Below are positions 6,358-60,506 of a stretch of 64,000 nucleotides of DNA, piece after piece; position 1 is the first letter of the stretch, and each line of letters starts with the position of its first letter. The translations under genes and the position numbers were made by a program. Origin of the DNA: a virus (lineage: Duplodnaviria; Caudoviricetes); the IMG/VR virus record IMGVR_UViG_3300028591_000078, positions 160,001-224,000 of that record; one strand, given 5' to 3'. The notes under the pieces are model-generated. The model searched no databases. It was not told the DNA's origin and saw nothing but the letters and a program-made list of their open reading frames with translations.

Positions 6358-9300
6358 TTATGAATGATAACCATACCAAGCGCCAGAAGGACAGTTAGTA
6401 GTCGTTGCCGCTGCAGTACCAGAAGCAAGATGTCTAAGAGCCTGAGTTCCGTATGCTGTAGAATGGTGATCATGTGATGCAGCCGCATATGCTGTAGAAG
6501 CAGTATATGCTGCAGATCCAAGTCCCTTAACAGCAACATTAGCACTAGTACCATTGGTATTTACACTAATTGTACCATTTGAAGAACCTGTAGCTATAGA
6601 TCTTACACCAGAGTTAGAGAAAGTTGTACCACTAAGAGATATACCAGTACCTGCAGAATAAGTGGTATTTGTATCAGTAAACTTCGGCGAAGATCCTACT
6701 GTAACGCCATTGATCTGTGTAACATTAAGGTTACCAGTAGAAGGATTAAAAGTCAAATTACTATTCTTTCTAGCTCCTTCTGTTCTAGTGGTGTTATCTG
6801 CTGTTACAGAAAACAGAACTTCATAGTTTGCATTTGTAGAAGTAGCTGTCTGAGTAACCGCATTATTAGTATTTGTATCAGCAGGAGTTGTAAATATAAT
6901 AGATTTACCACCAGCTGTAAGCTGATACTTAGTATTAGCGGCGAGGGATATAGAACTTGTACCACTAGAAGCGGCAAGAGCTATAGTATGGTCATGTCCA
7001 GTTGGAGCTGCACCTACTTCACTTGCAGTATATGTAGGCTTGGTAGATGCTTGCGCCCATGCATATACTGTAGGAATGTCTGATGTATAAGCAATTTTCT
7101 TCCAAGCTTCCCATGATGTTGTAGCACCTATACGATGGTAAAGGCCAGTATCATTGAAAGCTAATTCATGAGACTTACCACCAGAATTATCAGACCAACC
7201 TCTAAGGCCAATAAGATAAGAGTAAGTATCATCAGAAGGAGATCCTATTGTAGCCTTTGATTTAAGGCCCATAAATGTAAATGTATTGGAATAGCTATTA
7301 GGTGTTGTTGCAACATTTCTTTGATCTCCAATAGTTGCAAGACTATAATGTGTATGACTAGCGGCCGCGGCACCTATACTTGCTGGTGTATGACTATGAG
7401 ATGAAGCGGCATATGCTGTAGAGTCGGTATATGCTGCAGATCCAAGACCAAGTATAGTCTTTATATTTGCAAGAGAACTCTTTCTAAGATATCCATCAGA
7501 GTTAGCATATATAATATAGCTAGATGTAGTCGGAGTTTCTGCACCAGATGACTGGTTTAGATAAGTGGCAAATATATAACCACTAGAGGTACGCTTAACA
7601 AGTGTAGAATTTGTAGCACTATCTGAAATTGTAGGAAGATCAGTAATCTGAGATACTGTATGAGTATGACTTGCAGGTGCGGCATAACTAGACCAGTTAT
7701 TAGTGTCTAATAATGTAGCCCAACCAGACCAAGTTTTTTGATTCATATACCTATGACCAATGGTAAGACTATTATCATCAATATATATCTGATGACCATA
7801 AGAATCAGACCATGGTATATCTATTATCATACCATCTGTATAAGATCCACATACCGAATTAGATACTTTACAAGCAGTTACATATCCAGGATAATGGAAT
7901 GCATTTGCTGCATCAGCAGTTGTACATTGAGCTCTCATAGCCATTTCAGTATGATCATGTCTAGTAGGCGCAGCTCCAACTTCAGATGCAGTATAAGTAG
8001 GCTTTGTACTTGCTTTGGCCCACGCATATACATCACTTGCAGGCATAGATGACGGGAAATCTGTAATCTGAGACTTAGTATGAGTATGCCCTTTAAGTGA
8101 CGGAGGCTGAGCAGTTACAGTAGTCTGAAGAGTTGTAAGACTGGATACATTGCTTATTGTAAAGAGTCCTGCAAAATTATCTATCTGAGTATAGCCGTTA
8201 GTCACATTACTAATGGAAACACCAGTATAATCACCACCATCGAATCCTACCCAAAGATTATTAGCAGAATCGTATCCAAAGTATACATTAATAGCAGCAT
8301 TAGTAGAATCTCCTAATACAACTGCTGTTGGAGAATACCAATGACTGTTACCATACTGATATCCAGATATAAGTACAGATGTAGCTCTATAGCTCTGATA
8401 CAGGTTTACTACAAATGAAAGCATCCAAGAAGTAGTACTATTAATCTTTATCTTAATCTTAGTAGTATTGCCTGTTCCACCATAATGGAATTTATGAGTA
8501 TATACTGTATCATGGTTGTGACCAGATGTTGCAGCTCCTATATTTGCAGGAGTAACTCTCTGCCATGTATTATCGTTTCTAAGGAATATCGAATTATTAG
8601 CAGTCTGTGTATCAGGTACATGGTTACCATGTGAAGTAAGTGCATAATCACCAGCATTCTTAGTAACAATAGTACCAAAGGCACCTTTCTTACAATATTC
8701 AAGATTAGAACTCGTATCCGCATATGCACCATTCCAATATGCTAATGTATTAGAAGTAATCAGTATATTGTCTGCCGAAGTTGAAGTCCATCCTAATGGA
8801 CCGCCCTTAGTATTATTTCTAGCAGTTACATTAAATGTAGTTCCAGAGAGTGTCAAATGTGTACCAGCAGAATAAGTAGTATTATTATCAGCAGGCATAG
8901 TAAAGATATATGACTTACCGCCAGCTGTAATCTGATACTTGCCACCATGTGCCAGAGTAATCTGATTAGTTCCTGTAGATTCAGCGATACTTATAGCATG
9001 TGTATGGCCACTAGTAGCTGCATAACTACTATAGTTGCTTGTAGTCAGAACCTCATTGATATTCTTCCATGTAGTAGTATTACCTTTAGCACCATTAAAC
9101 AGGAACATTCTAGGAGCAGCATCTTGCTTAATTATACCTAAACCTGTAGACCACGGTACATCATTACCTGAATAAGTATCCATGAGCAAGCAGTCTGCAT
9201 AAGTCGGGAATCCAGAAAGACCCTTAGGATTATTCATCATAACGAATCTTACTGTTGCATTAGATACAGCAGAAGGTGTAAGCTGTCCACCATTACCAGA

Positions 9301-12300
9301 ATAAGTACCAGCTACATTAGTTGCAGGGCCACCAGCAGAAGCTGATCCAGCATAGTTATGCGTATGAGACTTAGGGGCATAAGCAGAATCATGGTTATGA
9401 GATGTTGGAGCAGCTCCAATATTACCAGGAGTAATATTGATAGTGCTAGCACTAGACTGGTTAGCAGTAAATGTGCCAAGACTTGTACCATTGCCCTGAA
9501 TAGTAAGTGTACCATTGTTTACGGTATAAGTATGATCTGTCCATGGTACATTAACAGCAAGATATCCAGACTTGTCTAAAACAACAGGATATATTCTGCC
9601 AGCAGTTTCTGTAGCAGCTGCTGAGTCATTTGTAAGGGCTGTTTCAGATTTGAGTTTTGTCTTAAATGTAGTTCCACTTAAAGTTAAACCAATACCAGCA
9701 GAATAAGTAGTGTTATTATCTGCAGGCATGGTGAATATATATGACTGACCACCAGCTGTAATAGCATACTTACCACCATGAGCAAGTGTAATCTGATTAG
9801 TACCAGTAGATGTAGCTATACTTATAGCATGCGTATGGTTACCCGGAGCTGCATCAGTTGCACCAGTACCAACAGGTCTCCATGTATTCGTATCAGCAGG
9901 AGTTGTAAAGATATACGACTTACCACCAGCAGTGAGCTGATACTTGGTATTAGCTGCAAGAGCTATTGAACTTGTACCACTAGAAGCAGCAATACTTATA
10001 TCATGAGTATGACCACTAGTAGCAGCTCCAATATTACCAGGAGTAATATTGATAGTGCTAGCACTAGACTGGTTAGCAGTAAATGTGCCAAGACTTGTAC
10101 CATTACCATGAATGGTAAGAGTACCATTGTTTACAGTATAAGTATGGTCTGTAGGTGTAGTGAATATAATACTCTGACCACCTGCAGTGAGTTTATACTT
10201 TGTACTCGGAGATAATGTAATAGTGCTTTCACCATTATCTGCAGCAAGTGCAATACTATGAGTATGACCAGTAGGAGCAGCTCCAATATTGCCAGGAGTA
10301 ATATTAATGGTACTATCACCTGCCTGGTTAGCAGTAAACGTTCCAAGACTTGTTCCATTACCCTGAATGGTAAGAGTGCCATTGTTTACAGTATAAGTAC
10401 TATTTACAGGTGTAGTAAAGATTATTGACTGACCACCTGCAGTAAGCTTATACTTTGTGCTAGGACTAAGAGTTATAGCACTGGTTCCAGAATCTGTAGC
10501 AAGTGTTATACCATGAGTATGATTACCATAAGCGGCATTGGAAGCTCCTGTGCCGAGAGCAGGGCTAGTAATAGTAATATTACCATTTGCATCACTAGTT
10601 ACAGTTGTTCCACCAGCACCAGCAATCTTTCTTCTATCTCTAGCAGTACCATTGTCGCAGATAATCAGATAAGTATTGCCATTAGTAGTTGCAGCATTTG
10701 CATTACCATCAGAAGCTCCAGCATAAAGATGTGAAGTCCAATGAGTATCTGCAGGTGTTGTAAATACATAAGAGGTTCCACCAGCAGTAATAGCATACTT
10801 TGTAGAAGCAGCCAGACTAAGCTGATTAGTTGCACTAGAAGCAGCTATAGATGTAGCATGAGTATGATTACCATAAGCTGCAGTAGTAGCAGATGTGCCA
10901 AGAGATGGCATTGTCATCGTAGTGGTACCCTTACCTGTTACATGACCCTGAGCATCATAAGATACTGTAGGAATGGTAAATGTATCGCCAAATGTAAGAG
11001 TCTTAGTAGCAGAACCAGATGCAGTGCCTGCAGTAATAGCATTAGTGTGCTGGAATGTCAAACCATCATCAGCAATTTCAATACCACCACCGGCAGCAAA
11101 TGTAGGAAGTGTAACAGTGGTTGTACCTTTACCAGTTACATGACCCTGTGCATCATAAGATACTGTAGGAATACTAAAACTTCCACCATTACCTATGGTT
11201 GCTGTAGCAGAACCACTAGCAGTACCAGCAGTAACGGCATTAGTATGCTGGAATGTCAAACCATTTAGCTTAATACCAGTATTAGCTGTATAGGTAGGAA
11301 TTGTTATAGTAGTGGTACCCTTACCTGTTACATGACCCTGAGCATCATAAGATACTGTAGGAATACTAAAGCTTCCGCCATTACCTATAGTTGCTGTAGC
11401 AGATCCACTAGCAGTGCCAGCAGTTACACTATTAGTATGGCTTATCTTATTGCTAGCTAAGCTTATACCTGTACCTGCTGTAATAGCTGTCGAAGATCCT
11501 ACATGGCCATGAGCTGTAATACCTATAGCATAGAGTGCTTCAGATTTAGCTGTAGTATTTCTAGCAGAATCTGTAGCATGTGTATATGCAACAGCACCTC
11601 TATCTCCACGATATGCTGTAGAAGATGTTTCACCGAGTGCAAGATGAGAACCAATCGGAATATATGATTCTCCACCCCAACGATACTGAGTATTAGTAGC
11701 CTTAGCTACATATATCTTACCCTCTTCACCAGTATCAGGGAAATCATCTACTGTATCAAAATTCAATACGTCATCATAAGATCCAGGTATCTGAGAACTA
11801 GGAATCTTACCAGAAGAATCCAGAGTAGCGATACCATTATTGGATCCCATCAATGCTGTAACTGTGCCGATAGCCTGTGCAACAGCCTTACCAGATGTAG
11901 GTGTTGTACCAGTACTGGAATAAGTATCGGTTGTATCCATGTATGCAGAAGATCCAAGTCCCTTAACTGCTACATTAGCACTAGTACCATTAGTATTTAC
12001 ACTGATAGTACCATTAGCTGTACCTGTAGCTATAGATCTTACACCAGAGTTTGTAATAGATGTTCCAGAAACTGTAACACCATTAGACCCAGTATAAGTA
12101 GGAAGTGTGATCTTAGTAGTACCCTTATCTGTAATATGACCTTGTGCATCATAAGTAATAGTAGGTATTTCAAAGTTTCCACCATTACCAAGTGTAGATG
12201 TAGCTGTACCAGAAGCAGTACCAGCAGTAATAGCATTAGTGTGCTTAAAATTCAGACCATCAAGCTTGATACCATCACCTGCACCAAACTTAGGTGTAGT

Positions 12301-31072: not shown

Positions 31073-31208
31073 AGTATGACTTTACTCCTTTCGGTTTTGT
31101 AATATGAGTTGACAATCTCATATCCACCTATATATTATATAAATGAAAATATCGAGTTTAACTAATCTTAAAACTTACCAGTAATAATGGAAAGGGAGTC
31201 TTATACTT

Positions 31209-32372
31209 ATGAATTTTGGTATGAATCCGTTCATTCATATTGATGCAGAACCAGTAAAGAGAGGAACCTTAACAGAGGTTCATATTTCAGATATTCACTT
31301 TGGTGTATTTGATCCCAAGGTTCAATTTGATATATTATCAGAGCAATTCTTAGCAAAGATTGCTCCATTACATTTCGATGTAGTATCTGTAGATGGAGAT
31401 CTATTTGACCACAAGTTTTTATCAAATTCAGATGCAGTAATGTATGCAACTAAGTTTGTTGAAGCATTGGTGTGGTTATGTAGAGGCAATGGTGCTACTT
31501 TAGTATTACTCCATGGGACAGAGTCTCATGATGCTAGACAGTTAAAATTATTCTATCACTATCTTGGAACTCCAGGATTAGATATAAGAATAGTAGAAAC
31601 TGCAAGGTTTGAAGATATAAAAGGTATGAGAGTATTATGCTTACCCGAAGAATATGGAAAAGGTAAAGCATATTATCAGAGATTCTTATATGGGTCAGGA
31701 CTCTATGATACTGTGTTTATGCATGGTAATCTTAAAGGTGGATTATTTGGAGCAAATGAAGAAGATCTTGATGCAGTTAAGAATCCTACATTTGATATTA
31801 ATAGCTTTGGATTATGTACAGGTCCTATAATTGCAGGGCATGTACACATAGCAGGATGTTTTGATAAGTATATGTATTATAATGGATCTCCATATAGATG
31901 GAACTTTGGTGAAGAACAGCCTAAGGGATTCATGATAATACTTCATAATCTAGATACTGGTGAGCATTATGCTCACTTTGAAGAGATTACATCATTTAGA
32001 TATGATACAATCAATCTAGATAATATGGTGAACTCTGATCCTAAACAAGTAGTAGAATATATCAGACAATTACAAGCTTCTGGTATTGATAATATTCGTG
32101 TAGAGTTCACTATGGGTGAAGCTGAGTGGTTAGAGATAATCCAAAATTATTATAAAAATAACCCTACAATAAAGATCAAGGCAGACACTGCCTCAGTACG
32201 TGAACAAGCTAAACAGGAAATTGAGTTCGAGGAAAAATATAAACAGTATGAATATATACTTGATACAAGTTTATCTCCACAAGAGATACTCTGTAGGTAT
32301 ATAAATCAGAATAAGGGATATGTTTATATCACTGCCGAAGAACTTATTAAGATCTTGGAAGACGAGACCTGA
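31209..32372 (+). CDS. sbcD: SbcD/Mre11-like metallophosphoesterase nuclease
   Basis: SDIH, DGDLFD, HGTESHD, MHG, AGHVH and YNGSP motifs. Confidence 0.85.
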   Translation: MNFGMNPFIHIDAEPVKRGTLTEVHISDIHFGVFDPKVQFDILSEQFLAKIAPLHFDVVSVDGDLFDHKFLSNSDAVMYATKFVEALVWLCRGNGATLVLLHGTESHDARQLKLFYHYLGTPGLDIRIVETARFEDIKGMRVLCLPEEYGKGKAYYQRFLYGSGLYDTVFMHGNLKGGLFGANEEDLDAVKNPTFDINSFGLCTGPIIAGHVHIAGCFDKYMYYNGSPYRWNFGEEQPKGFMIILHNLDTGEHYAHFEEITSFRYDTINLDNMVNSDPKQVVEYIRQLQASGIDNIRVEFTMGEAEWLEIIQNYYKNNPTIKIKADTASVREQAKQEIEFEEKYKQYEYILDTSLSPQEILCRYINQNKGYVYITAEELIKILEDET

Positions 32373-32394
32373 AATCTTCCAAGATCTTTTGTGT

Positions 32395-32633
32395 GTGTTG
32401 ATAGCCTGATAAGCAGTTTCATTTTCATTAACCCATAAAGACAGCAGTCAAGCCTCCTGATCTTTTCAAGTTTCCTATATATTTTGCTAAGTTTAAAAGT
32501 TTAACACTTTACGCTTCTGATTTCTAAAGCGTATTGTGCTAGGGATTTTCATTCAGTTTTGCCCTGGCGGGCAATACGTTGGGGTCTTTAGCGTAAAAAA
32601 TAACCGTGGGAGAGATCCCACGGTTTTCTTTTT
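32395..32633 (+). ncRNA. candidate antisense/regulatory RNA (or degenerate cassette leader) complementary to tip-cassette leaders
   Basis: 24-nt exact complement to 38786-38809 and 47239-47262; further leader matches; nested G-U-containing stem at 32508-32598; terminator at 32602-32633. Confidence 0.5.
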
Positions 32634-32634
32634 T
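32595..32634. terminator. bidirectional intrinsic terminator
   Basis: aaccgtggga-gaga-tcccacggtt with A- and T-tracts. Confidence 0.8.
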
Positions 32635-32959
32635 ATGCTGGATATGTACCAGCATAAACATTTTGCATCATCTTGGTATTTTCGATCCTTATCAGATCGA
32701 GTAAGAATGCAAGCTGCTGTCTGAACCTGTATCCTCTGATTGTAAGAGGACTCGATAATTTCCAGAGCTCTCTATAATATCTAGAGTTCTGGATAGATGC
32801 TTTGTCTCGCATCCACTTTGTAAGCATATCAATATTCTCTATATTGATATACTTACAGAGTACAGGAAGAGTGTAATTTATGTAATCTTCCTGATTAGAC
32901 TTGGTGCCGATTCTCACCAAGTCATCAAATGCGTCAGCTAAGGCTTTTTCTTTAGTCAT
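32633..32959 (-). CDS. hypothetical early protein
   Basis: Start re-assigned to MTKEKA after AAGGAG; early motif near 32990. Confidence 0.65.
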   Translation of the reverse strand: MTKEKALADAFDDLVRIGTKSNQEDYINYTLPVLCKYINIENIDMLTKWMRDKASIQNSRYYRELWKLSSPLTIRGYRFRQQLAFLLDLIRIENTKMMQNVYAGTYPA

Positions 32960-33065: not shown

Positions 33066-33329
33066 TTAATTAACTACGTCAAAATACTCTGAAATCAGAT
33101 CGAAGTTAAAATACTCCAGATCAGCATTCAGAATAACTTCACATATATCTCCTTTTCGGAGAACTAAAGAAAGAAGTCCTAAGAGACTTTTGGCATTGCA
33201 AGTTCTAGACTCGCCCTGTTTTTTGAGATATATTGCAGATCCATTCGGCACTTTGTTGAATGCACTGCATACTTCAGAAGCACATCGACGTGTTATATCT
33301 ACTTTGCAAATAAGTGTCTTTGTTATCAA
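33066..33329 (-). CDS. HPr/Crh-like phosphocarrier-fold protein
   Basis: CNAKSLLGLLSL (HPr Ser46 region) and KGD motif; HPr-like size; lacks His15. Confidence 0.7.
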   Translation of the reverse strand: MITKTLICKVDITRRCASEVCSAFNKVPNGSAIYLKKQGESRTCNAKSLLGLLSLVLRKGDICEVILNADLEYFNFDLISEYFDVVN

Positions 33330-33479
33330 ATCTTATCTCTCCTTTCTTATTGTTATGTTATGTTATTACGTGTTATCTATTATTCATAATTCTACCAATT
33401 TAGATCGAATTATGAATGGAAAGTATTGAAAATAATCATTATATAAACAGTATAGTACAGGAAAATCTAAGTGTAAAGG

Positions 33480-38111: not shown

Positions 38112-38150
38112 CTTTATAGTAAAATAATTCTATAAGGAGGAATTTTTATC

Positions 38151-38784: not shown

Positions 38785-39513
38785 ATGTCTTTATGGGTTA
38801 ATGAAAATGGAGTAATGAAAGAGATTACTGATGTAAATAAAAGCAATGCTATAAATATAGTAAAACTTGGAATAGATGATCTTGATGTAACTGCTGATCA
38901 GGTAAAAAACTATATTATAAATTGGACTGGTTGGAATAAGGCAGCTTTTAATGATGAATATAAAGGTGAATTACTAATTCCTATAAAAACGGTTAATATT
39001 GGATGTGCCCCTGAGCTTATAGGAATTAATTATACAAGAGAATATTTTTATCAAGATGATATAGATGATAGTAATGATTATTCAAGTTATGACCTTTTTA
39101 TATTATCTAATACAACAACTACGGTAACAAAAACAACTATAGAAAGAATCGGATATAGCTATGTAGAAAGAGGAGATTTTGGAATCTCTGTAGATCTTAA
39201 TATATTACGTCAAGGAAAGTATGCTAATCTTAAAGCAGAATATTCTTATAGCATGCCTTTTACAACAGAAACTAATCAGGTTTCTACAACACGCAATGGT
39301 CGAACTATTACATATAGACCGGTAATGACACCTATGAAGTGCGTTGTAATGCATTTATCTGGATCAAATCTTATATTCTATCAGTCAGCAAATATTTATT
39401 CATATGGCGGAGAACATGAAACTACTTCTGCACTTAGAAATAATCTTAGAGTTCAAGCTAGTTCGACTGGTGGTAAAGGTATAGCAATGTACACTATACC
39501 TATATTACATTAA
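38785..39513 (+). CDS. variable tip cassette protein 1 (putative receptor-binding adhesin)
   Basis: MSLWVNENG N-terminus; body related to 46283..46972. Confidence 0.7.
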   Translation: MSLWVNENGVMKEITDVNKSNAINIVKLGIDDLDVTADQVKNYIINWTGWNKAAFNDEYKGELLIPIKTVNIGCAPELIGINYTREYFYQDDIDDSNDYSSYDLFILSNTTTTVTKTTIERIGYSYVERGDFGISVDLNILRQGKYANLKAEYSYSMPFTTETNQVSTTRNGRTITYRPVMTPMKCVVMHLSGSNLIFYQSANIYSYGGEHETTSALRNNLRVQASSTGGKGIAMYTIPILH

Positions 39514-39916: not shown

Positions 39917-40345
39917 TTAATAGAAGATGATTAGTTCACCATCTTCATATTTATAACTACTGCTACCATACGTTGTAGAATCGGATCCATTTGAAATTTC
40001 AATAGATAATTTTTTAGTTGAATCATTATAGGAATATTTATAATGATATCGTCCAGTACTACCATTATTATTATTTATTCCTACAAAGCTACCACTAGAC
40101 CCTGAACTAGTATCTATGTTTAATCTGTCAACTCCATCACTATTAATACCAGAAGAACTTGGTTCTGTATATCTATAAAAACACATACAAAATTTTGGAG
40201 CGCTAGGAAGATCAACAGTTTTATTTAATGAACCAGTACTGGTTGATGCTTTAAAAGATTTTATTCCTGTTAATCCAGAACCAGCAGCAAGATATTCATC
40301 AGTTAAACTAGTTACAGTACCATCTTCATTAGCATATATTGCCAT
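39917..40345 (-). CDS. variable tip cassette protein 2
   Basis: MAIYANEDG; body related to 40930..41337. Confidence 0.7.
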   Translation of the reverse strand: MAIYANEDGTVTSLTDEYLAAGSGLTGIKSFKASTSTGSLNKTVDLPSAPKFCMCFYRYTEPSSSGINSDGVDRLNIDTSSGSSGSFVGINNNNGSTGRYHYKYSYNDSTKKLSIEISNGSDSTTYGSSSYKYEDGELIIFY

Positions 40346-40393
40346 AATAAGCCTCCTTATGAATGTAAATAAATTTTATTCCTATTTATTTTG

Positions 40394-40423
40394 CTAAACT
40401 TAAAAGTAAACTTTTAAGTTTAG
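40394..40423 (-). promoter_or_regulatory. type-B leader palindrome
   Basis: ctaaacttaaaagt-aa-acttttaagtttag; identical copies at 41386 and 47019, inverted copy at 48960. Confidence 0.8.
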
Positions 40424-40505
40424 TCGAAAATTAAAAATTACATACTCACATGCTGCCTAAGTATATGAGTGGTAAAAATTTTTGATCAAATTAATTTTTA
40501 AATGA

Positions 40506-40534
40506 CTAAACTTTCAGTTTTACTGAAAGTTTAG
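40506..40534 (+). promoter_or_regulatory. type-C leader palindrome
   Basis: ctaaactttcagt-ttt-actgaaagtttag. Confidence 0.75.
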
Positions 40535-40557
40535 GAAAGAAAGAGAAATGCATTTTT

Positions 40558-40890
40558 ATGGCTGTATATGCTAATGAAGATGGTACTATTAAAAATCTGA
40601 CTGATATAACTAATACTGGTTTTACAAAAATTACAATGGGAATTATAGGTTCTAAGGGTACTATATCAAAAAATGTTGGTTTTACTATAAAACATTGTTT
40701 ATTTATTGGAATTAGAGAAAGTGGCGGAGACAGTTATCCTGAAATACAGTCTAATACATTTGCGGTTGATAGTGGATCTATATATGTAGGAGGATATGAT
40801 TACGCAAATGTATCATTTTCTGGAACTACTATTTCCTATAGTAATAATGGTAGTAGCAACAGAAATGTTGTTTATATAGCATTTGGATAA
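40558..40890 (+). CDS. variable tip cassette protein 3
   Basis: MAVYANEDG; ends in YIAFG. Confidence 0.7.
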   Translation: MAVYANEDGTIKNLTDITNTGFTKITMGIIGSKGTISKNVGFTIKHCLFIGIRESGGDSYPEIQSNTFAVDSGSIYVGGYDYANVSFSGTTISYSNNGSSNRNVVYIAFG

Positions 40891-40895
40891 ATAAA

Positions 40896-40922
40896 ATCCC
40901 TAGGGTAAAATACCCTAGGGAT
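40896..40922. terminator. bidirectional terminator, near-identical to 39880
   Basis: atccctagggta-aaa-taccctagggat. Confidence 0.75.
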
Positions 40923-40929
40923 ATTTATT

Positions 40930-41337
40930 TTAATAAAAGACTATCATTAGACAATCCTCATATTTTCTATCTTCTGAAGTTTGATTGGTACCAGCGTGTC
41001 CATTATTTATACTAATTACTAGCTGTTTTGTTGATTCTATATAATTATAGGTATATAAATAACTGTTTGGTATACTTCCATTTGAATCAAATTTACCAAC
41101 CCAATGGCCACTTAGATTAACAGAATATCCTAGATATGAGTGATATTCAAGGCCACCAGCAGTACCACTTATAAGTTTATTATATGTATAAAAACATAAA
41201 ACAAATTTTGGCTTGCTATCAAGCGTTATAGTAGTCGATTTAGTAAAAGCTTTTATTCCTGTTAGCCCAGAATCAACAGCAAGATATTCACCAGTTAAAT
41301 CAGATATAGTACCATCTTCATTAGCGTATATAGCCAT
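40930..41337 (-). CDS. variable tip cassette protein 4
   Basis: MAIYANEDG. Confidence 0.7.
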   Translation of the reverse strand: MAIYANEDGTISDLTGEYLAVDSGLTGIKAFTKSTTITLDSKPKFVLCFYTYNKLISGTAGGLEYHSYLGYSVNLSGHWVGKFDSNGSIPNSYLYTYNYIESTKQLVISINNGHAGTNQTSEDRKYEDCLMIVFY

Positions 41338-47237: not shown

Positions 47238-47990
47238 ATGTCTTTATGGGTTAATGAAAATGGTACTATGAAAGAAATTGCTACAGATAAGGATAGTACT
47301 GGTGCATATAAATGTACTAGAGATCTTGTATACTGTAAATGGTCATATAACAATGTAGCACGAGAAGGATATCAAGGATATCAGGGTATTACTGCTGCTA
47401 CATTAGGATTAACAAAAACTATATTAGTTGATAAAAAGACTGGTTCTGGTCAGAGTGGATCTTATTCATATCCATCTCGTGATATAAGTATAAAAGATCT
47501 TGATGAAAGTTATAAAAAGACTATTTATACTGGAACATTTCCTCGTAATATGTGTCCAAATGCAGCAATGGTATCACAAATCAGAACTGATACACTAATC
47601 AGTTCTGATACTGGTTTGGTTTTAAAACAATATTTTATTAGTAATACTGCTGAATTTGATAAGTTTTTAGAAGTTGGTGATTCTTTTAGTAGTATTGTTG
47701 GATGCGGATACCCAATTGCAGATGATTATAGTAATAATGCCTCTAAATCTAGTGACCCTAGAAATTGGTCGTCAAAAGTTGAACTGAGAGCTATGGGAGA
47801 ATGCTTAGATGGTATTAATTATAGATTCTATGTAGTACTAGCTAGAACTTCTGACATTACAGAACAGGCAGCTTTAACTACAAAACTGTATTCTTATCAT
47901 AGATTAAATTCTCCAGGATTTGATTATAAATGGATTGGTACTTATTTAATTCAACATATACCATCATACACTGAATATACTATAGAATAA
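47238..47990 (+). CDS. variable tip cassette protein 6
   Basis: MSLWVNENG; body unrelated to cassette 1. Confidence 0.7.
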   Translation: MSLWVNENGTMKEIATDKDSTGAYKCTRDLVYCKWSYNNVAREGYQGYQGITAATLGLTKTILVDKKTGSGQSGSYSYPSRDISIKDLDESYKKTIYTGTFPRNMCPNAAMVSQIRTDTLISSDTGLVLKQYFISNTAEFDKFLEVGDSFSSIVGCGYPIADDYSNNASKSSDPRNWSSKVELRAMGECLDGINYRFYVVLARTSDITEQAALTTKLYSYHRLNSPGFDYKWIGTYLIQHIPSYTEYTIE

Positions 47991-48959: not shown

Positions 48960-48989
48960 CTAAACTTAAAAGTTTACTTTTAAGTTTAG
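48960..48989 (+). promoter_or_regulatory. type-B leader palindrome (inverted copy)
   Basis: ctaaacttaaaagt-tt-acttttaagtttag. Confidence 0.8.
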
Positions 48990-57862: not shown

Positions 57863-60506
57863 GTGTCTAGGAAGACAGACATAACAAATACAACACTAGA
57901 GGAAGAGATAAAAAATTATGGAAACTCTATAGTTTCTATAGATGACCCTGTCCAAGCAGTGCGTCAAATAGCAGATGTCTATATTGGGGCACTTGGAAAC
58001 CCCGCCTTTTTGACTATGACTAGAGAGATCATTCAGAACTCATTTGATGAAGATATGAAAGGTTTTTCTAGTAGTAGAAACGTTTATGTATGGTTTGATG
58101 AACGTGATCTGAGAGTTACTGTCCAAGATTCTGGTCGAGGAATTCCTGAAGGAATGATCGATACATTATTTGGAAAACTTCACTCGTCCTCAAATTATAA
58201 TAAAAAGCCAGGTGAGTATTCTGCAGGTAAGAATGGTCAAGGTGGTAGCTTAGTTAATATGCTGTCACATACATTTACTGTAGATACATTTGTTCTTGGG
58301 AAAGGAAGACATGCTGAGTTTATTGAAGGACATATGTGGAAGAAGGGAGAAGTTCCTATTCCTAATTCTGAAGGTAAACAAGGTACAATTATAAGCTTCG
58401 TACCTAACCAGGATGTTATAGGTCAGTTGACTATAACTTGGTTAGATGTATATAAACTTATAGAAGTCATTATGCCTGCAACCAGAATAGGTCTGAATAT
58501 ATTTATGGAGTTCATTGATAAGAATGGTAAACTTCATAAAGAATCTTTGACTAATACTGATGGTATAATGCATCACTTGTATAATATGACTCAGTCTCCT
58601 CTCATTAAGCCAATCTTAATGAGCGCTGATACTGGATATTTCAAGGCAGATATAGCATTGACTTATGATAGTACAATGACTTTTACAGATGAAGAAATTA
58701 TAGGATTATGTAATACATGTCCTACTGTAGGAGGATCTCATATAGAAGGTCTTCTTAATGGTGTATGTAACTTCTTCCGTAAGTATATGAATAATATATT
58801 CCTTGCTGGACAGAAGTCTAAGAAACCTCTCACTGTAATGAATTCTGATATAAAGGCTGGACTCAAAGCAAGTATATCAGCATTCTGTCTTAAAGCGTCT
58901 TATACAGGTCAGTCAAAAGAAGTTCTCTATGTTCCTGAAATGGTGCCTTTCGTATCAGGATTGGTTACTAAAGAACTTGATAACTGGGCTAAGACTAATC
59001 CGAACGACTTAAAGAAACTCTGTCAGTATTTCAAAGATATTGCAGAGGTTAGAAGTAAGTCTGAAGAAGGTAGAGTAAAACTCTCTACTAAGTATGCTAC
59101 TAGTGTAATTGGTGGATTACCTAAGAAGTATGTAAAACCGAATGGTAAAAAGAATCTTGAACTCTTTATAGTTGAGGGAGATTCAGCTCTTGGTCCTGCC
59201 AGATTAGGTAGAGATCCTGAGAGGCAAGGTATATTCCCTATAAGAGGAAAAATATCTAATGCTATAACAACTCCAAGAGATAAGTTCTTACAGAATGAAG
59301 AAGTAAGTGCTATTCTTAATATCTTGGATGCTGGATATGGTAGATCTTTTGATATCAATAAATGTAAGTTTGAAAAGGTAGTAATGATGTGTGATGCAGA
59401 CCCTAGACCGTTGGGGCTTCGGGGAGCGATCCTCGTTGAAAAATCTCTTTAACTGCTGGAAGTGTCTAATGCTTGATTGACTACAACATAGCTTGAAAAG
59501 GCAAGTGTGAATGTGACGAAAGTCGGAAAGAACTAATCAAGATAGTATATGAGGATAGTAACTCTAAGTACTTTATAATGTACTGATCAGCAGCCAAGAT
59601 CCGCTAAGGATAAGGTTCAACGACTAGTTGAAAAACGTAGGGCCGAAAGGTTCGAAATGGGAGACATCTCTATGAGATGATGATATAGTCTAACCAACAA
59701 TGTTGGACGGCAATCACATTAGATCATTACTTCTCCGCTTATTCTTGCTTTATTGTGAACCATTAGTAGCCTCTGGAAGATTATATGGAGCAGTTCCGCC
59801 TCTGTATAATATGACTAAGAATGGTAAGAATGTATACTTCACTGATATGAAGGACTACATCGATTATGTACAGAAAGAGTTCATGAAGAACAATGTAATC
59901 TGTGATGTAAATGGAAAGCAGTTACCTTATGCACAGCTTTCTAGAGTACTCAGAGATAATATGTATTATGTAGAAACTCTGGAGAATACTGCAACAACCT
60001 TTGCAATAGATCCTGTTCTCTTAGAGATCGTCCTTATTAATAAGGATATGCCTTTCAATAAGTTTAAAGCTTATATTGAAAAGCTCTATAGATTTGTAAC
60101 TGTATCTAAGAATGGTAATACAGTTATCATATCTGGTATAGTAAATGGTCTTATGGATAATATCTTCCTTGATGATCGTTTACTTAGTTTCTGTGGATCT
60201 ATACTGCAGGCTATCAAACATTCGCCAAACTACTTTATTATGAATGGGCAGATGGTTTCTTTGTATGGATTGCTTAAAGCATTTGATACTACAAAGCCTC
60301 CTCATATAGAACGTAATAAAGGTCTTGGTGAGATGGACCCTGACCAGTTATCAGAATCAACCCTGTACCCTGGATCTAATAGAACTCTGATTAGATATAC
60401 TGTAGAGAATATCAAGAAAGAGATCGAACAGATTAGATTCATTGATGGTAACAGATCCGAACTTCTGAAGGACGTAAAAGTTACTAAGGAAGATGTGCTT
60501 GGATAA
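57863..60506 (+). CDS. gyrB: type II topoisomerase GyrB/ParE-like subunit, spliced: join(57863..59404,59706..60506)
   Basis: EIIQNSFDE, DSGRGIP, VEGDSA, PIRGK and KGLGEM motifs; splicing restores DADP|DGNHI. Confidence 0.9.
59405..59705 (+). mobile_element. group I self-splicing intron (301 nt, no homing endonuclease)
   Basis: 5' exon ends in U and intron ends in G; P aactgctggaa (59451), Q atcagcag (59586), R gttcaacgacta (59615), S atgatatagtc (59680); IGS ccgttgggg pairs with both exons. Confidence 0.9.

Follow-up and report, generated by a model that had tools for sequence, protein, structure and literature searches.

The element at positions 32395-32633, a ~240-base non-coding stretch in the tail of an early gene's transcript, is very probably the 5′ relic of an eleventh member of a phage gene family whose ten intact paralogs lie elsewhere in the window. 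The window is the 64,000-nucleotide stretch of DNA that was analysed (bases 160001-224000 of a 238,365-bp contig, 34.7% G+C). The best explanation of the element's present state, held with about even confidence, is that the relic is a passenger in the transcript tail between two terminators (T1 and T2), the functional parts of which are the terminators themselves and a stem-loop of the plus strand. The contig was recovered from sheep gut metagenomes, related sequence is present in many ruminant gut runs, and the phage carrying the element is a rumen jumbo phage with a DnaB-like helicase that shares ~34% identity with its counterparts in the Bacillus jumbo phages AR9 and PBS1.

Thirteen strain contigs with a ≥90% identical SbcD-like protein were compared, all of which carry the element. 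Group 1 consists of ten sequences including the window, and group 2 of three (L015, L020 and L021); run contigs of X2, X3 and X20 look like group 1. The element and its surroundings contain the following features.

31129-31145, plus strand: early-type promoter TATATATTAT-N6-G from the genome-wide motif list, 80 nt upstream of the SbcD-like gene.
31209-32372, plus strand: gene for an SbcD/Mre11-like phosphoesterase of 387 aa (Pfam Metallophos, E=0.0012, below the curated cut-off).
32177-32195, both strands: small hairpin with a GGCAG-ACA-CTGCC core, flagged by the scan as terminator-like on the minus strand.
32350-32399, plus strand: T1 hairpin over the stop codon, with a stem at 32351-32362 / 32375-32386, a 12-nt loop and a TTTTGTGTGTGTT tail.
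32400-32419, minus strand: spacer without family homology; in the alignments, homology to the family genes ends at 32420.
32420-32443, minus strand: exact 24-nt copy of the starts of the A-type genes at 38785 and 47238, invariant in the ten group 1 sequences and broken by deletions in group 2.
32442-32444, minus strand: CTG replacing the family ATG, fixed in group 1.
32450-32458, minus strand: ribosome-binding site (RBS) AGGAGGCTT, identical to the type-B RBS at 9/9 positions; group 2 reads AAGAGG or AATAGG.
32453-32471, minus strand: type-C-like arm ACTTGAAAAG-N3-AGGAGG, common only to the leader of gene 48830.
32472-32500, minus strand: a single arm of the palindromic type-B leader together with flanking CAAAATATATAGGAA; its partner arm is absent.
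32505-32598, plus strand: nested 90-nt stem-loop, stable only on this strand and unique in the genome.
32602-32633, both strands: T2, a bidirectional intrinsic terminator found by the terminator scan (hairpin 32602-32625, T-runs on both sides).
32633-32959, minus strand: convergent gene of 108 aa; the HPr-like gene that precedes it has a late-type promoter motif upstream, at 33359.

Read along the minus strand, the element presents T2, the stem-loop region, the type-B arm with its flank, the type-C-like arm with AGGAGG, the type-B RBS, CTG and eight codons, after which family homology stops abruptly. The 24-mer represents nt 2-25 (codons 1-8, SLWVNEN) of two genes starting MSLWVNENG. As the initial annotation had stated of this reverse complement, it is exact: the window holds precisely three copies, at 32420-32443 on the minus strand and at 38786-38809 and 47239-47262 on the plus strand, and none of 100 shuffles contained such a match. 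Similarity around the 24-mer reaches 39-41 nt at 83-85%. The codon ahead of it on the minus strand is CTG instead of ATG, and AGGAGG stands 8 nt ahead of this CTG. The earlier assignments of the remaining left-half segments stood up equally well. Plus-strand AAGCCTCCT at 32450-32458 complements the type-B RBS, the pattern CCTCCT-N3-CTTTTCAAGT of the type-C leader occurs in the window only at 32453 and 48842 (and 0 times in shuffles), and the 29-nt stretch at 32472-32500 shares 90% identity with four type-B leaders while keeping a single palindrome arm. No cassette body follows the CTG.

The right half had been described as a nested stem that favours the plus strand through G-U pairs and ends in a U-tailed terminator, and this too was borne out. 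The fold of 32505-32600 is predicted at -37.0 kcal/mol on the plus strand (z -5.0) vs -22.8 kcal/mol on the minus strand, and 6 of its 32 pairs are G-U and hence present only on the plus strand. The terminator proved to be bidirectional. In contrast, the loose complementarity claimed between the loop and the type-D leaders did not hold: no ungapped match was found at ≤3 mismatches, the loop motif had at least one match in 40/100 window shuffles (i.e., no better than chance), and duplex energies to the two D-type leaders ranked only 15th and 46th of 216 gene starts. The best Rfam match of the element scored 23 bits vs a threshold of 56, so that none reached the gathering score, and a tRNA scan of the element found none.

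The family to which the left half belongs is recognized by the N-terminus M-[AS]-[VLI]-[YW]-[AV]-N-E-[ND]. Its ten intact MAVYANENG/MSLWVNENG paralogs lie at 38.7-50.5 kb, and a search with the N-terminus returned the copy at 32444, with its CTG start, as the eleventh match. No Pfam or PHROG family was found for the paralogs. The two genes that share the 24-mer, both potential antisense targets, are as follows.

38785-39513, plus strand: A-type family gene 1, 242 aa (predicted duplex -52.3 kcal/mol, rank 2 of 216).
47238-47990, plus strand: A-type family gene 2, 250 aa (predicted duplex -55.6 kcal/mol, rank 1 of 216).

The 242-aa A-type protein has only three matching clusters among 5.8 billion proteins, namely its own cluster, that of an L010-type genome (91%) and that of L012 (84%). 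Searches of phage records by megablast, distant blastn and tblastn with the A-type protein returned no close relative, and IMG/VR searches and prokaryote genome contigs yielded no match. Since the element is absent from the relative L006 and A-type proteins form only three clusters, the A-type genes and the relic are both young and restricted to one and the same lineage.

Array size varies among relatives. For example, L006 carries two family genes (7455-9784) between the helicase and a 706-aa gene, as compared with ten in the window; the two belong to the MAIYANENG type, each preceded by a type-B palindromic leader. At the strain level, a ~1-kb duplicated unit (window 40237-41229) is missing in L012, as judged against window 40465-41244.

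Comparison with relatives settles how the element arose. In L006 and L009, whose SbcD-like proteins are 81% and 73% identical, the gaps to the convergent gene measure 88 nt and 50 nt, respectively, and hold only a homologous bidirectional terminator. Nucleotide homology of the relatives to the window ends at 32365 and resumes past T2. Since these gaps hold the terminator only, ~220 bp (32373 to ~32591) were inserted in the window's lineage, and the element is a lineage-specific insertion of that size. T2 is ancestral, since it is present at the same position in relatives without the element. The corresponding gap of more distant relatives is either empty or occupied by small genes of other kinds, which makes the site downstream of the SbcD-like gene a variable spot.

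A decayed eleventh cassette, which had been listed among the alternatives in the initial annotation, is the origin that fits best. Leader arm, RBS, start and the first eight codons are collinear on the minus strand; coding capacity has been lost, in that the start is gone, the body is absent and group 2 has a broken frame; and the nearest relatives, L006 and L009, lack the element. Decay has gone further in the sister lineage represented by group 2, where deletions have broken the 24-mer and left the stretch 22 nt shorter, the RBS is degraded and the minus-strand frame no longer runs through, while the type-B arm, stem-loop and T2 are retained. The SbcD-like gene of group 2 has 91-92% nucleotide identity to that of the window and differs at 25-29% of four-fold sites.

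Two other interpretations of the left half were rejected. Gene conversion is an unlikely cause of the 24/24 identity with the A-type genes, since the adjoining 15 nt carry 5 stable mismatches in four group 1 sequences; the invariance of the 24-mer stretch in group 1 counts further against it. The minus-strand frame of 57 codons beginning at CTG was dismissed as a gene because its family similarity ends with codon 8, group 2 does not keep it intact and its length is near chance. By rough estimate, an open frame of this length is close to expectation for a sequence that is codon-for-codon complementary to a gene.

An empty docking or expression site had also been proposed, at which cassette bodies would be moved or inverted onto the leader by way of the 24-nt and leader repeats. 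The exact inverted 24-bp repeat, together with leader-like sequence that lacks a cassette body, is what such a site would offer, but the homology is confined to the 5′ side and neither an ATG nor a promoter is present. Contigs of two DNA runs contain no rearranged joints with cassettes, though rare variants might be missed there, and the arrangement of SbcD-like gene and element is kept in 13/13 strain contigs. Moreover, L010 and L012 follow the window collinearly from the element up to and including the first A-type gene, and two helicase genes would be turned around by an inversion between 32.4 and 38.8 kb. A docking site of the type used by shufflons and in pilin and vls antigenic variation is accordingly very improbable.

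The phage's own promoter motifs were derived from the whole genome. The early class, TATATATTAT-N6-G, has 24 intergenic copies genome-wide, most of which are then followed by the same TGA start signature. The late class, AACAT-N5-TAA, typically stands 23-58 nt upstream of a start codon. Sites of the form AACA-N6-TA are intergenic in 53/156 cases, whereas intergenic sequence makes up only 9.4% of the genome, and when T[AG] is permitted at the start point, 37 intergenic late-type sites lie at most 80 nt upstream of a same-strand gene. Both classes agree with the AR9 consensus motifs, i.e., early AAATATATATTAT-N6-G and late AACA-N6-T[A/G] (PMC5312081). Examples in the window are early promoters at 31129 and 53440 and late promoters at 33359, 33446 and 36089.

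Neither strand of the element carries an early or late phage promoter motif, the best late-promoter score within it being 5.1 vs a training median of 14.5. A candidate early promoter on the plus strand, TATATATTTT at 32476, was discarded because the conserved A of motif position 9 and the starting G are both missing; only one other intergenic copy deviates at position 9, and it too is without the downstream signature. The relic is also without the palindrome half that carries a late-like motif in complete type-B leaders. This motif, AACT-N6-TAA, has a score of 10.4 in the type-B palindromes at 40394-40423 and 48960-48989, where it faces away from the adjacent type-B gene and towards a gene ~160 nt off. 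Most family leaders hold no good canonical late motif on their own strand.

Plus-strand transcription into the element probably begins at the early promoter at 31129, which is overlapped by a sigma-70-like TTGACA-16-TATATT. Downstream of this promoter lies the SbcD-like gene, some homologues of which are named SbcCD nuclease subunit by JGI. Between this gene and the relic stands T1, a modest terminator formed by a 12-bp A/U-rich hairpin with a TTTTGTGTG tail (-19.6 kcal/mol, z -4.1); in L006, a hairpin at the T1 position has no T tail. On the far side of T2, the late-type motifs at 33359 (-) and 33446 (+) precede neighboring genes. The 87-aa HPr-like protein encoded at 33066-33329 (-) adjoins the 108-aa gene in all relatives fetched with the region, and its orthologues match PF00381 (PTS-HPr).

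RNA-library contigs from two different studies bridge T1 into the element, and these contigs carry no strand. The X10 contig spans 32188-32426 at a depth of 32 with the adaptor abutting 32188, and the X20 contig spans 32188-32584 at a depth of 7.2. DNA runs cover the whole stretch; parts without RNA-contig cover in X10 and X20 were not used as evidence. Given the chemistry of random-primed libraries, run-off at an RNA 5′ end would be expected to yield a sharp, adaptor-abutted end. The contigs point to a discrete RNA end at 32188, either a processing site or a terminus, with no promoter motif nearby. Late-like motifs at 32160 (score 3.9) and 32212 (score 8.7) were considered and rejected as a misfit with this end. 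The position at which both contigs stop falls in the loop/3′ arm of the small hairpin within the SbcD-like gene. The balance leans slightly towards plus-strand RNA, since the end is sharp and abutted by adaptor and the early promoter is the only one in reach. A minus-strand reading is less likely, although 32188 sits in the hairpin flagged as terminator-like on that strand.

In the fullest version of the latter, the relic leader might start or stabilize an RNA that crosses T1 in antisense and then covers the final 185 nt of the SbcD-like gene as far as the hairpin at 32195-32177, i.e., a late antisense transcript against an early gene, as for some AR9 genes. In variants of the idea, the dead start would be a decoy that captures some factor specific to family leaders, or else the 57-codon CTG frame would be translated. 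The contig end inside the hairpin would be expected of such an RNA; the X10 depth of 32 at 32188-32426, against 2.2 on the contig of the neighboring 108-aa gene, and the strong AGGAGG ahead of the CTG are in keeping with it, and late promoters of AR9 do drive antisense transcription (PMC5312081). However, the minus strand offers no early or late motif, the palindrome half with the late-like motif is absent, and T2, a strong terminator, shields the element from minus-strand genes upstream. The fold favors the plus strand, and the CTG frame has the defects noted above (destroyed in group 2, no family similarity past codon 8, near chance). A role for the minus strand is thus improbable, if less so than a docking site.

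The most ambitious claim of the initial annotation was that a single trans-acting RNA could pair with all leader classes. Duplex energies of element segments were therefore predicted against 216 gene starts. For segment 32415-32460, if the plus strand is transcribed, the predicted energies are -55.6 kcal/mol with the A-type start at 47238 and -52.3 kcal/mol with that at 38785, as compared with a mean of -16.1 (sd 3.9) and a best of -32.0 for the background of 206 other starts. Six family starts are in the top seven, the four beyond the A-type pair falling within ranks 3-7, and segment 32461-32504 places the four type-B starts at ranks 1-4. The prediction of very strong pairing with the A-type starts thus stands, as does that of above-background pairing with type B and one type-C start; type-D starts are not distinguished. 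With no type-D pairing, no promoter in the element and the pairing segment lost in group 2, a master regulator of all ten genes is not supported. Since the left half of the element is the inverted 5′ end of a family gene, its complementarity to leaders and start codons stems from common descent and not from design, and the predicted pairing restates homology and adds nothing beyond it. Moreover, the element is the only orphan intergenic copy of a coding-sequence start in the whole 238-kb genome; it is therefore not a general regulatory device.

A narrower proposal is that the relic, now part of a 3′ UTR, has come to be used against the two A-type paralogs, as a regulator of a subset and not of all ten genes. 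This is possible but doubtful. The early SbcD-like transcript would read through T1, end at T2 and perhaps be processed at 32188. Its loosely folded portion at 32415-32504 would pair with the A-type RBS and start and, more weakly, with the type-B leaders and one type-C leader, and would block translation or create double-stranded RNA for cleavage, keeping late genes down early in infection. The picture, likewise tentative, is of a tail-tip-like paralog whose dead 5′ fragment was captured in inverted orientation by the 3′ UTR of an early DNA-repair gene. It is no more than a minority prospect that this pseudogene-born RNA acts in trans to shut off the two youngest (A-type) paralogs early in infection.

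Several features recommend this proposal. The duplexes with the A-type starts lie far beyond the best background value, family starts are top-ranked, and a 3′ intrinsic terminator is preceded by a stable stem-loop that is specific to the plus strand. The early promoter at 31129 lies upstream, RNA-library contigs bridge T1 in two studies, and the A-type genes and the element are both restricted to the window's lineage. Against it, the contigs are strandless, the element has no promoter and follows T1, and group 2 circulates in at least 3 samples without the pairing segment.

Strain diversity bears on the same question. Within group 1, 5/203 element sites segregate (2.5%) vs 34/124 four-fold sites (27%) in the adjacent gene (Fisher p = 2e-11). 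The variable sites in contigs are 32404, 32499, 32576, 32583 and 32584; two more, 32470 and 32566, are seen only in runs. Diversity is zero in the 24-mer and RBS (0/41 sites at 32420-32460 among the ten sequences). Such low diversity would favor a pairing function, but the conservation signal is only marginal when set against a local low-diversity block. Silent diversity already drops in the last quarter of the SbcD-like gene, where 8/96 third positions are variable (32082-32369) vs ~19/97 for the first three quarters. A block of low diversity, or an additional constraint, may therefore begin upstream of the element; by the local silent yardstick of 8-11%, the deficit in the element is only about three-fold, with a rough Fisher estimate of p ~0.03.

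Covariation between element and targets offers no help, as both the 24-mer and its targets are invariant among the strains and leave nothing to read. The invariance of the pairing segment in group 1 is uninformative, and the segment is lost in group 2. In the stem, 99.3% of cells are paired in 8 distinct sequences, with two group 2 cells unpaired. The changes comprise one compensatory pair (G-C to A-U) and five one-sided changes that still pair; a shuffle control gave 71/500 and is weak because of the few sequences. The group 1 stem variants at 32566, 32576 and 32584 are G/A exchanges facing U, with which the plus-strand fold stays between -37.0 and -37.5 kcal/mol, and the fourth, at 32583, only turns G-U into A-U. 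Every group 1 stem variant thus leaves the fold unchanged, a point in favor of an RNA acting from the plus strand.

Beyond T2, the convergent 108-aa gene is hypervariable, with 35% of sites segregating among 4 strains vs 4-5% for the core genes on either side. This hypervariability is probably why many metagenome contigs stop directly past T2.

The passenger explanation, which we return to as the preferred one, can be put together as follows. The left half is the inverted and truncated 5′ end of an eleventh MAVYANENG/MSLWVNENG member, deprived of its gene body and comprising half of a type-B leader palindrome, a type-C-like arm, an RBS, a start mutated to CTG and the first 8 codons. The right half is the stem-loop, which folds on the plus strand only. 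The whole was inserted between the stop codon/T1 of the SbcD-like gene and the ancestral T2. Lacking a promoter of its own, the relic would be transcribed as a passenger whenever T1 fails to stop the early SbcD-like transcript. The finishing and stabilizing of that transcript would fall to T1, the stem-loop and T2, the last of which also ends the convergent gene. We infer from this arrangement that transcription is by read-through on the plus strand and that the relic probably has no dedicated regulatory role.

Some observations sit uneasily with a mere passenger. A neutral relic should be more variable than the group 1 element is. The 24-mer has been kept at 24/24 while the neighboring 15 nt differ from the A-type genes at 5 positions, and the region is represented in the RNA libraries of two studies. 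By analogy, the succession of a loosely folded pairing segment, a stem-loop and a terminator may be said to resemble the layout of base-pairing small RNAs.

Among known systems, the element is most readily compared with phage gene remnants (5′ pseudogene fragments). Like these, it is the truncated front end of a multi-copy gene with an inactivated start, it is lineage-specific, it lies in a variable gap between core genes and it is eroded in a sister lineage. Unlike them, it is less variable in ten strains than the silent sites of the neighboring gene and is likely transcribed antisense to its parent genes.

Base-pairing small RNAs derived from bacterial 3′ UTRs include UhpU (PMC12704781) and CisR, which acts on CTX phage mRNA (PMC13250501). 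The element shares with them a location downstream of a stop codon, a stem-loop followed by an intrinsic terminator, and a segment complementary to the translation starts of mRNAs encoded elsewhere. It differs in being known from sequence and strandless contigs and in having a complementarity of 24-41 nt inherited from a gene copy in place of a short evolved seed. The terminator-like T1 stands between gene and element, and the pairing segment is lost in group 2.

Giant phages also produce small and antisense RNAs. For instance, most antisense RNAs reported for AR9 overlap their own target genes (PMC5312081), and small RNAs are found in 201phi2-1 and phiKZ, those of 201phi2-1 being mostly derived from 5′ UTRs (PMC11512511). 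The element likewise belongs to a jumbo phage with AR9-type early and late motifs, but the candidate RNA lacks its own promoter and would work in trans on targets at distances of 6 and 15 kb.

The c4 RNA of P1/P7 is a phage antisense repressor of translation, a dedicated and processed immunity RNA with short sites that co-vary with their targets. The parallel is that an RNA made by the phage would bind one of the phage's own mRNAs at its ribosome-binding region. Dedicated processing, short matched sites and target covariation would set c4 apart from the candidate RNA.

If the element is only a relic, it marks the growth of a ten-gene array by duplication, ectopic copying and decay in one rumen jumbo-phage lineage, and it serves as a warning that striking complementarity may be inherited and not designed. 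If the relic is used, it would provide a dated case of a regulatory RNA arising from a pseudogene fragment in a giant-phage 3′ UTR, with natural lineages "with" and "without" it to compare, the sister lineage displaying the state in which the pairing segment has been lost. In that event, members of a receptor-binding-like family would be selectively silenced at the RNA level.

Two further features of the window may be mentioned. A 23-nt exact inverted repeat (1965-1987 and 38122-38144) lies just upstream of the unrelated genes 1958 (-) and 38151 (+) and looks like a shared leader or promoter element. Finally, a group I intron (Rfam RF00028, 62 bits) is located at 59394-59706 on the plus strand, between the ORFs 57863-59452 and 59700-60506.
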